IMG/VR virus record: IMGVR_UViG_3300032295_001241
Span: 1-33,081 of that record
Source of the DNA: a virus
Lineage: Duplodnaviria > Caudoviricetes
Direction: 5' to 3' (one strand)
DNA length: 33,081 nucleotides
Both the position numbers and the translations under genes were made by a program. A model generated the notes under the pieces. That model was given only the letters and a program-made list of their open reading frames with translations. It did no database searches and was not told the origin of the DNA. The stretch's first letter is position 1. Each line of letters starts with the position of its first letter. Positions 1,196 to 28,992 of the stretch are shown piece after piece.

Positions 1196-1233
1196 GGCAG
1201 GTAGATCTCTAGGAAACTAGGGGTCTGCCTGCC
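1196..1233 (+). terminator. 17-bp RNA hairpin with GAAA tetraloop (terminator-like, no U-tract)
   Basis: GGCAGGTAGATCTCTAG-GAAA-CTAGGGGTCTGCCTGCC; the three non-Watson-Crick positions are all U.G on the + strand; directly after the stop at 1189. Confidence 0.65.
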
Positions 1234-1380: not shown

Positions 1381-1561
1381 CTCCCCCCACGGTTCGCTCC
1401 TTTAAGAGCTGGTCGCCGTAGCCAAGTATTTAGCCGACACCAAGTTTGAGATTACGTTTCTCACGCCGCTCCTCTACATGACATAGAGGTCTACCCGCGT
1501 TCCCGCGTGTGAATGACCCGCCCCGAGCGAATGGGGTACGTCCGTGCTACTTACCAGTTGT
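1381..1561 (-). ncRNA. candidate structured ncRNA, copy 1
   Basis: Minus-strand promoter TTGTCA-N18-TAGTAT; begins ACAACTGG; hairpins covary with the copy at 28797-28940; ends approximate. Confidence 0.65.
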
Positions 1562-1568
1562 GGGGTAG

Positions 1569-1598
1569 ATACTACATGCAATAGTGTACAGTTGACAA
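1569..1598. promoter_or_regulatory. overlapping divergent promoters
   Basis: Minus strand: -35 TTGTCA (1598-1593), -10 TAGTAT (1574-1569). Plus strand: -10 TACAGT (1587-1592) 7 nt before ATG 1600 with no SD, i.e. leaderless arrangement. Confidence 0.55.
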
Positions 1599-2925: not shown

Positions 2926-4875
2926 ATGACAAAAGGTAGACGGGCGATCTCGCCCGAGGATAGGGCTTTGTTTTGGCAATCCCTGCAATCAGGTGTGTCA
3001 ACTAAAGAAGCTGCTCGCATTGCTGGCATCTCATACAACGCAGCTGTTAAATGGCGGGCTAAAGCCAAAGAGACGGAAGCTCGCATTGACTTAGAGAACC
3101 TCACCCTTGCTAAGCCTGGTGGTGGTCGTGGCAAGGTCGAGAAGGACCGCGTCGAAATGGTTACGATGCCTCCGGTTATTCCGGCTGGTCGTTTGTGCGA
3201 ACGTGCACAACGTGGTTTAGAAGACTTCGACTATTTCCGTCGTGTGTACCTTGGACGTGTTCCGGCCCCATGGCAGGTTGATGCTGCATACAAGATCGTG
3301 GCCATGCTTGAACATCCAGAGAAACAGTTCATGGTTCTTAACTGCCCTCCTGGTGCTGGTAAATCAACCCTGTTCCATGATGTGGCTGTGTGGTGTATCG
3401 TGCGCAACCGTTCCATCCGTGTGATGATTGGTTCGATCAGTCAGACACTGGCAAAGATGTACTCACGCCGTATCCGTGAAACCCTAGAACGCACGCAACC
3501 TTTGCAACCGGACCCTGAAATGGTAGCCCGTGGTTTAGCATTGAATGCAGAAGCATGTCTCTCAGTTGACTATGGGCGGTTCCGCCCCAACCACGTGGGA
3601 GCATTATGGCGAGCAGAGGAGTTTGTAGTTGAACAACTGGGTACTGGCGGCTTGGATAACAAGGAACCAACCGTTTCTGCATACGGTATTGAATCTGAGT
3701 TTATTGGTCACCGTGCTGATCTGTGCCTTTTCGACGACGTAGCCTCACCAGAAAACTCCAAAGAATCTGTAGCCCGTGACAAACTCATCGAACGTTGGGA
3801 CTCCATGGCTGAAGCGCGTGTGGACCCGGGCGGCATGCTGGCGGTTATCGGACAGCGACTCGGACCTGGAGACTTATATGCTCATTGCTTGGCTAAGGTC
3901 TCGTACGATGTGGATGAGTATGACGGAACGGACGTTACGGATGTCTCGGAAACAGTCGAGCCACTTAAAAGCTACAAATACCACCACCTCATCTACAAAG
4001 CGTATTACGAAGAACTAGATAGTGGCCCTGCTTCGCGCAAGCAGACAGCTCCGGCATGGCCTGAAGGTCCACTTCTAGAACCATTCCGCCTTTCATGGAA
4101 GGACCTGTCGTACGTTAAGCACAGCTCACCATCAAAGTTTGAGGTGGTATATCAGCGAAAGGACATGGCTGAAGACCACTACCTGATTAACCGTGTATGG
4201 GCAACCGGAGGTCTTGGACCGGACGGTGTTGACTACCCGGGATGCATCGATAGCGACAGGCAACCAGGCTGGATCCCAGAAGGACTAGCCCCACCAATCA
4301 TTTCCATTGCCAGCATCGACCCATCGCCAACAATGTTCTGGGCCATCCAATGGTGGCTATACCAGCCAGAAACCAACCTTCGTTATCTCATTGACGTAGA
4401 ACGAATCAAACTGACAGCCGAGGATCTCCTCGGATACGACACCAGCAACCGCACCTTCGGCGGAATCATGGAGGAGTGGCAGAACAGGTCCTGGGAATAC
4501 GGCTATCCAATTTCCCACTGGATCGTAGAAATCAACGCGGCTCAAAGGTTCCTCCTGGCTCATGACTTCGTGCGCAAATGGCAGGCACTACATGGCGTAA
4601 ACGTAATCCCACACACTACCGCACGTAACAAGTTCGACGAAAACCTTGGTGTTGAAGCTTTGCTGCCACCACTATGGAGATCAGGACAGATCCGTATCCC
4701 CACAATGCGAGGCAACTGGAAGACTCTTGCGTTCGTGGATGAGATGTGTTCATGGACAAGAGATAAAAAGAACGGAACCGACTTGGTGATGGCTCACTGG
4801 TTTGCAGAGCTACACGTTCCACAGTTGCGTCCATCCAAAGCACCACCAAAGCTCTGGAGGCCAACGTGGATTTAG
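2926..4875 (+). CDS. terL: terminase large subunit with N-terminal HTH
   Basis: Walker A NCPPGAGKST, Walker B LCLFDD, coupling motif VIGQR, nuclease SIDP...VEIN...TDLVMA; N-terminal GVSTKEAARIAGISYNAAVKW HTH. Confidence 0.92.
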   Translation: MTKGRRAISPEDRALFWQSLQSGVSTKEAARIAGISYNAAVKWRAKAKETEARIDLENLTLAKPGGGRGKVEKDRVEMVTMPPVIPAGRLCERAQRGLEDFDYFRRVYLGRVPAPWQVDAAYKIVAMLEHPEKQFMVLNCPPGAGKSTLFHDVAVWCIVRNRSIRVMIGSISQTLAKMYSRRIRETLERTQPLQPDPEMVARGLALNAEACLSVDYGRFRPNHVGALWRAEEFVVEQLGTGGLDNKEPTVSAYGIESEFIGHRADLCLFDDVASPENSKESVARDKLIERWDSMAEARVDPGGMLAVIGQRLGPGDLYAHCLAKVSYDVDEYDGTDVTDVSETVEPLKSYKYHHLIYKAYYEELDSGPASRKQTAPAWPEGPLLEPFRLSWKDLSYVKHSSPSKFEVVYQRKDMAEDHYLINRVWATGGLGPDGVDYPGCIDSDRQPGWIPEGLAPPIISIASIDPSPTMFWAIQWWLYQPETNLRYLIDVERIKLTAEDLLGYDTSNRTFGGIMEEWQNRSWEYGYPISHWIVEINAAQRFLLAHDFVRKWQALHGVNVIPHTTARNKFDENLGVEALLPPLWRSGQIRIPTMRGNWKTLAFVDEMCSWTRDKKNGTDLVMAHWFAELHVPQLRPSKAPPKLWRPTWI

Positions 4876-28797: not shown

Positions 28798-28940
28798 GTG
28801 CCCCCGTCGGGTTGCCACAGTCCGACTCCCTAAAACAAATTCACAGCGCCTCGCTACATGACATAGCGATCAACCCAGGTTCCCCTGTTTACTGCCCACC
28901 TCCTGCGACGGAAGCACACACATGCGACTAGCCAGTTGTT
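28797..28940 (-). ncRNA. candidate structured ncRNA, copy 2
   Basis: Minus-strand promoter TTGCAA-N17-TACCGT; begins near ACAACTGG; same ordered motifs and covarying stems as 1381-1561. Confidence 0.65.
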
Positions 28941-28948
28941 GATCGGAC

Positions 28949-28992
28949 ACGGTACACCCATGCCCAAACTTTTGCAACATGCATGTTAATGT
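28949..28992. promoter_or_regulatory. divergent promoters with a central palindrome
   Basis: Minus strand: -35 28977-28972, -10 28954-28949. Plus strand: TGTTAATGT 28984-28992. Palindrome AACATGCATGTT at 28976-28987. Confidence 0.55.

Follow-up and report, generated by a model that had tools for sequence, protein, structure and literature searches.

The packaging RNA (pRNA) of phage phi29 comprises 174 nt (bases 147-320), and descriptions of it are confined to phi29-like phages (PMC11476376). GOLLD and ROOL, according to a preprint, are pseudoknotted phage non-coding RNAs of unknown function that lie near tRNA islands, and GOLLD often exceeds 800 nt (bioRxiv 2024.12.08.627333). ARRPOF, GEBRO and PAGEV are moderately long structured motifs tied to replication regions (PMC5737381). 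By eye, the known system closest to the RNA described here is the raiA motif RNA (RF03072), which has a length of about 200 nt and an actinobacterial setting.

The locus analyzed here lies in a virus record of 33,081 nt (IMGVR_UViG_3300032295_001241; estimated completeness 84%), and this whole stretch is called the window. Its plus strand carries terL, portal, capsid, endolysin and recombination genes. An earlier note had proposed a novel non-coding RNA on the minus strand, present in two diverged copies with compensatory base changes. The family to which these copies belong resembles phi29 pRNA in its similar size, its own promoter, its position near a likely genome end and a short covarying loop pairing, but differs in its nuclease-type terminases, in the presence of a small terminase (TerS) in one phage group and in having no match in Rfam, which also separates it from the other systems named above. 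A phi29-type motor without a small terminase was not encountered; the large terminases were of the phrog_38 and phrog_9 types, and TerS was present in phages of about 30 kb. GOLLD and ROOL are likewise pseudoknotted, but the family RNA has only 140-250 nt and the window contains no tRNA. ARRPOF, GEBRO, PAGEV and ColE1 RNA II are plasmid-borne; for the present RNA, a role at an origin is a candidate. Lastly, HEARO and omega-RNAs differ in that the HNH domain beside the present RNA is fused to TerL, and no IscB- or TnpB-type nuclease adjoins either copy in the window.

Two diverged copies and their homologues

Both strings quoted in the earlier note were located on the minus strand. A 12-mer of the shared core occurs at two sites in the window versus 0.08 expected, and the core common to both copies constitutes repeat family D16 (1461-1504 and 28841-28884). 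Copy 1 (1383..1561, minus strand) belongs to subtype A and scored 127 bits with the family covariance model, the training set of which included copy 1. Copy 2 (28798..28939, minus strand) belongs to subtype B and is flanked by the lysis genes on one side and the early operon on the other. From 30 copy-1-type sequences, with copy 2 excluded, a model was derived that retrieved copy 2 with 29.7 bits and an E value of 3e-8, whereas the next match in the window had an E value of 0.35. Single-sequence folding was unremarkable for either copy compared with shuffled sequences (z about -1.2).

The proposal that the RNA is neither a tRNA, a tmRNA nor a known ribozyme, and that it falls outside the described families, was borne out by several searches. 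ARAGORN found no tRNA or tmRNA genes in the window. Searches with cmscan against Rfam 15 gave no match for the whole window at E<=5, and none for positions 1300-1640 at E<=10; in 20 homologous loci and in 6 loci of types C and D (see below), the motif was likewise free of matches. Likenesses to riboswitches, SRP, RNase P and the introns of groups I and II were dropped as they had no support from Rfam. Searching 50,697 phage records with blastn yielded no match, and cultured phages, among the matches listed, had only about 24-30% identity to the two terminases. No description of the RNA was found in a literature search that covered mainly freely accessible papers, PMC10861870 among them. Three files of the viral candidate RNAs of Fremin 2023 (PMC10690425) contained no match, and the alignments, the bed file and one table of that work may list it. 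The novelty concerns the RNA family and its fold; the mechanism may turn out to be of a known kind.

A pattern search with the shared core yielded 31 viral loci. A GNRA-hairpin pattern was found in an estimated 1,300 IMG/VR stretches, of which 120 loci were taken for analysis. The median pairwise identity of the non-redundant members was about 45-50%. Two pattern scans returned mostly chance matches (69/107 without either flanking feature), which were not counted as members. Genome collections contained seven matches, all on MAG contigs from widely scattered taxa; where genes could be read, the contigs looked phage-like. One of them sits in an Acidimicrobiales MAG and is a candidate host link. 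A search of 140 further genomes from the family to which the genome G001 belongs yielded no chromosomal homologue. At two loci inverted second copies lie beside the first (L703:2753-2921 and L714:2752-2896), which are probably assembly chimeras.

Covariation and the pseudoknot

The common 5' domain of the family consists of the hairpin P2, the GNRA hairpin P3, a GGGUAGA junction and the variable stem P4, and is followed by one of two 3' domains, a long one in subtype A and a short one in subtype B. Copy 2 has the same 5' domain as copy 1, but its 3' domain is shorter, different and ends with a G5 run, which corrects the earlier note. At a few loci, designated type C, the 3' domain is of the A type and the 5' domain is altered (L589:5483-5681, L561, L586, L580, L592 and L607).

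In an unfitted MAFFT alignment of 30 sequences, 86.7% of the cells were paired versus 72.5% after shuffling (0/500), and structures slid along the alignment reached at most 50.6%. For 70 model-aligned sequences the values were 92.2% versus 75.3% (0/500), with slid controls at no more than 52.3%, this alignment being fitted to the model and thus biased toward it. P2, P3, P4 and one 3' hairpin topped the ranking by mutual information. Overall, covariation across the family extends to four helices and to a pseudoknot between a loop and a junction. The compensatory stem exchanges that had been noticed between the two copies are thus real, and they recur family-wide.

In copy 1 (all on the minus strand), transcription is predicted to start at ACAAC near position 1561. 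P2 occupies 1515..1542, and its core pairs were 98.6% paired, with two-sided changes at 4/4. It is followed, according to the family alignment, by P3 (1493..1510) with its GNRA tetraloop and a conserved AGA junction. The stem of P4 (1471..1489) covaries, and the sequence and length of its loop are variable. The GNRA loop and the GGGUAGA junction, which had been regarded as conserved, belong to the common 5' domain; TGTCATG, in contrast, is not a family feature because the loop of that stem varies widely in homologues. P6 (1411..1441), a helix with bulges in the 3' domain of subtype A, is mostly invariant and its covariation is weak, and P1 and P5 are likewise weakly supported or mostly invariant. 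The closing helix P1 has modest support (72% paired; -4.59 versus -3.91 kcal/mol, 0/500). The predicted 3' end is a G6 run (1383..1388), after which an A/C-rich trailer may follow. A G-run of at least five residues was present in 62/70 aligned members, and no pairing partner for it was found in the family alignments. A second pseudoknot of subtype A involving this run received no support from mutual information. Pairing of the ACAC bases with the 3' end was also dropped because variants preserve the local P3 pairing. An optional small leader hairpin lies upstream of the RNA at some subtype A and type D loci (L017, L085, L092, L742 and L743).

The pseudoknot emerged from an unguided column scan. 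It joins bases of the P2 loop (1526-1530 in copy 1) with the strand immediately 3' of P4 (AGCGG, 1466..1470). The longest Watson-Crick duplex averaged 3.37 versus 2.63 with permuted partners (0/2000; n=113 sequences less than 90% identical, a set that still includes a few misparsed rows). One position was U-A in 57, C-G in 35 and mismatched in one of 93 scorable rows, counts that are inflated by kinship, and both states occur in both subtypes. The TCGC loop singled out earlier is one strand of this pseudoknot, which had been missed; in copy 2 only three pairs are possible.

One likeness to raiA lies in the pseudoknot. In both RNAs, the loop of a hairpin, of the [U/C]GCA type, is paired with the strand immediately after the next stem, and the pairing analogous to raiA PK1 covaries here. 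In addition, the P2 tip of subtype B resembles raiA P3b, and a comparison of real sequences revealed a GUGGGG-like stretch near the 3' end of both RNAs. However, by inspection, the family RNA lacks the closing stem P1 with its GU/GGU bulges, PK2 and the UUAG..GUAA / PK1-P6 linker of raiA (PMC12968392). It also has an extra GNRA hairpin, and its closing helix is nested differently. The search with RF03072 gave no match at E<=10. A raiA-core model, with which a held-out raiA control scored 65.7 bits, had no match on the motif in 51 phage loci, and in the reverse search the family model scored at most 6.6 bits on raiA sites. Membership in raiA was therefore rejected, the cross-tests being negative both ways and P1 and PK2 being missing, and we regard a distant common origin of the two RNAs as doubtful. 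raiA was found in 44/121 Actinomycetota genomes (a tally that includes the unpublished G089, from which no sequence was taken); none turned up among 61 genomes sampled from the family to which the Acidimicrobiales MAG belongs. A full raiA RNA lies at the end of one viral contig (L548:1-201). In two others (L546 and L547) only the raiA 3' end is present, after unrelated DNA, which suggests an integration site.

Together, the alignments support a structured RNA family under selection. A folded single-stranded DNA or a conserved DNA site might mimic such a pattern, and pipelines of this kind also pick up ssDNA motifs (PMC5737381). However, G-U pairs outnumber A-C pairs by 136 to 15, which favours an RNA transcribed from the minus strand. 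Moreover, a GNRA loop was found in 72/72 regular subtype B members that had been sampled independently of P3 (14 more rows of this sample being variants or chance), and a promoter motif is located at the 5' end. We therefore consider a DNA element highly improbable, although the RNA contigs covering copy 1, described below, carry no strand information.

Promoters and transcription

Each copy had been thought to have its own promoter. For copy 1, a promoter scan identified a sigma-A-type promoter, TTGTCA-18-TAGTAT, on the minus strand (1569..1598; -35 at 1593-1598, -10 at 1569-1574). For copy 2, a candidate (TTGCAA-17-TACCGT, 28949..28977, minus strand) was read by eye and remained below the scan threshold; a similar element is present in the close relative G124. 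The motif TGnTAnnnT was found at most 70 nt upstream of the RNA in 40/55 distinct window-type sequences versus 2.3 in shuffles. In the small phages it was found upstream in 6/30, and many -35/-10 pairs were recognized by eye.

Contigs from RNA libraries covered copy 1 in two of four runs: a 240-nt contig of an aquatic run spans 1332-1552, and a 151-nt contig of a freshwater run spans 1313-1463. The other two runs contained no matching contigs, and uncovered stretches prove nothing. The aquatic run also contained contigs of other phage genes at similar depth (3-42). These contigs carry no strand information, so that they are a hint of copy 1 transcription. Of the original proposal, a new RNA family under selection is thus supported by covariation, the G-U asymmetry, promoters and the Rfam searches, whereas a minus-strand transcript is a prediction.

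Another possibility is that the RNA is a ribozyme or a cis regulator of the downstream operon, for example an antitermination leader. Ribozymes typically have a pseudoknotted core with conserved unpaired bases, and so does this family. However, no ribozyme family was matched and the RNA-library contigs that were matched had no joints at copy 1. The virion operon of the small phages is headed by the promoter and the RNA on the same strand, which would suit a leader, but neither copy in the window has a same-strand gene downstream. We judge a role of either kind to be distinctly unlikely. A type II hammerhead ribozyme (L051:2853-2915, 50.6 bits) lies about 1.3 kb downstream of one family member.

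Phage groups and packaging

The family occurs in three unrelated virion types, with genomes of 15-17 kb, about 30 kb and 38-40 kb (about 39 kb). Among 87 distinct loci with long flanks, the RNA immediately preceded an HNH-TerL fusion encoded on its own strand in 47, and it was divergent from a window-type terL in 20; the remaining 20 were other arrangements or truncated. The HNH-TerL group comprises complete genomes of 15-17 kb, and those of 15 kb have about 22 genes. In these phages the HNH nuclease is fused in frame to TerL (L059:1735-3021, L070:1717-3021, L720, L721 and L723). The 38-40 kb group we infer to be podovirus-like. The third group, of about 30 kb, is HK97-like and has its own TerS (phrog_83); its single copy, of subtype B, is separated from terL by about 7 kb, and the gene upstream of the RNA gave a weak lead to G39P_N (0.88, 11% of members). 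In the window, the large terminase gene (2926..4875, plus strand, phrog_38) lies beyond the copy 1 promoter, on the strand opposite to the RNA.

A packaging RNA similar to pRNA would bind the prohead or the terminase, could form intersubunit loop-junction pairs and would replace the small terminase. In accordance with this, the RNA adjoins terL in 67 of the 87 flanked loci, and neither the HNH-TerL phages, including a scanned genome of about 15 kb, nor the scanned window-type ORFs yielded a separate small terminase. Contigs of the HNH-TerL phages often stop just past the HNH part, 420-600 nt downstream of the RNA and within the fusion gene. In its size, and in lying close to a likely genome end, the RNA resembles pRNA (PMC11476376), and the covarying pairing of 4-5 bp could be intermolecular. 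However, the phages of about 30 kb combine a TerS of their own with a single, distant copy, the same RNA subtypes occur beside unrelated motors (phrog_9 HNH-TerL fusions, phrog_38 TerL and HK97-like TerS/TerL) and unrelated capsids, the N-terminus of one window-type TerL is weakly similar to TerS (phrog_4102, E 5e-6), and Rfam contains no match. A packaging role thus appears rather unlikely. The specific form in which a packaging RNA exists outside the phi29-like phages, has an interchangeable second fold and replaces TerS in HNH-TerL siphoviruses and podovirus-like phages of aquatic actinobacteria seems quite unlikely.

The orientation of the RNA is the same as that of the genes in two groups and opposite to all genes in the group of the window, and its position varies: it adjoins terL, comes after the lysis genes or lies within the early region. 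All three groups have a common early module. A WhiB gene was found in one sampled member of each group, which points to actinobacterial hosts (the corresponding part is absent from the window itself), and together with the common module it suggests that the groups share a host type. A gene for an AAA_5 ATPase adjoins a phrog_33218 gene in the early region of window-type phages (L725:6040-8709 and L728:9081-11257).

Conservation of the slot and the downstream DNA

Fixation was quantified by sampling terminases rather than RNAs, which covers close relatives only (69-100% identity). The 80 window-type loci included 68 in which about 1 kb or more of upstream DNA was searched. At 67/68 of these a structured RNA was present in the slot, namely the family RNA at 55 and a different RNA, type D, at 12; the single negative locus has just 1.7 kb upstream. 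Of the 78 loci of the small type, 40 had upstream DNA that was searched, and 37/40 were positive; the three negative loci match only inside TerL. A second copy was found in 8/26 positive window-type records.

Type D is another conserved structured RNA, of about 165 nt, which occupies the same slot upstream of terL, on the opposite strand, behind the same promoter type (L555, L558, L611, L612, L614, L615, L619, L622-L624, L627, L628 and L737-L837). It was found at 101 metagenome loci (63 distinct), has two-sided changes of its own at three pairs and likely contains a pseudoknot. The window-type geometry was observed in 40/40 loci with a marker gene in reach; 61 had no marker match. Type D matched neither Rfam nor the covariance model of the family, and it retains the promoter, the start motif and an end of seven G residues.

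Downstream of copy 1 and after an A/C-rich tract, a conserved DNA site, GGCAGACCCC (1220..1229, minus strand), is a candidate genome end or origin. A GGCAnACCC-like site was present 107-331 nt downstream in 51/57 window-type loci versus 4.5% of control windows. The composition shift at this site stems mostly from the A/C-rich tract before it (-0.33 versus +0.08). TATAT or ATATA was found at most 400 nt downstream in 38/57 loci versus 17.5% of controls, and in the group of about 30 kb an (AT)n run comes after the RNA. A C/G-rich inverted stretch (1233-1262) lies close to the site, and short CTAG/TAGTGC-rich repeats are found in a non-coding stretch past it (690-770).

R-loop priming has precedents in ColE1 RNA II and the T4 origins. 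As a cis-acting replication primer or origin activator, the RNA would form an R-loop with its 3' G-run that would be extended by host enzymes. The frequent terminal G-run, the AT-rich elements downstream and the retention of promoter, start motif and G7 end by type D would suit such a role, and the ORFs scanned from G149, G124, G178, G163 and G001:C9 matched no family of initiators, helicases, primases or polymerases. ARRPOF, GEBRO and PAGEV provide replication-linked precedents (PMC5737381). However, the copies of the window group face all genes, so that forks would be expected to collide head-on with transcription, copy 2 is directed into a lysis gene, an ORF lies about 100 nt downstream in the small phages, one carrier (L050) has a recognizable initiator gene (phrog_270), and the downstream change in composition is mostly an A/C-rich tract, not a symmetric origin skew. 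On balance we regard a primer as unlikely, yet as a serious candidate.

Discussion

Our preferred reading, which we hold tentatively, is a trans-acting RNA that binds a host protein common to the hosts of these phages. The free orientation and position, the selected second copy and the unrelated motors beside it all point to trans action on something that the hosts have in common. Copy 2 has kept a promoter-like element and compensatory changes although no non-coding tract lies downstream of it. In this trans-acting role, a host sigma-A promoter would likely drive the early synthesis of a discrete RNA of 140-250 nt, and the A/C-rich trailer may help to terminate the transcript and to trim it as far as the G-run. 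The GGGUAGA junction, the GNRA hairpin and the pseudoknot could form a compact surface for protein binding, the target presumably being a core factor of the actinobacterial cell and not a part of the virion.

Several observations weigh against trans action. The presence in 67/68 and 37/40 loci fits a cis-essential element as well, and accessory host-takeover genes are usually less fixed than this. The slot is tied to the downstream DNA site (51/57), which a purely trans-acting RNA does not need. In addition, the replacement by the unmatched fold of type D would be more readily understood if nothing but the promoter and the G-run were required.

Large pseudoknotted RNAs that phages keep almost universally are rare. 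The present RNA is kept in genomes of 15 kb and in three virion types, and a second fold can occupy its slot, so that it probably performs an indispensable job. A host-takeover RNA, an RNA-primed phage origin or a pRNA analogue would, if true, each be new biology, and an RNA-primed origin would bear on how tiny actinophages that lack replication genes manage to multiply their genomes.
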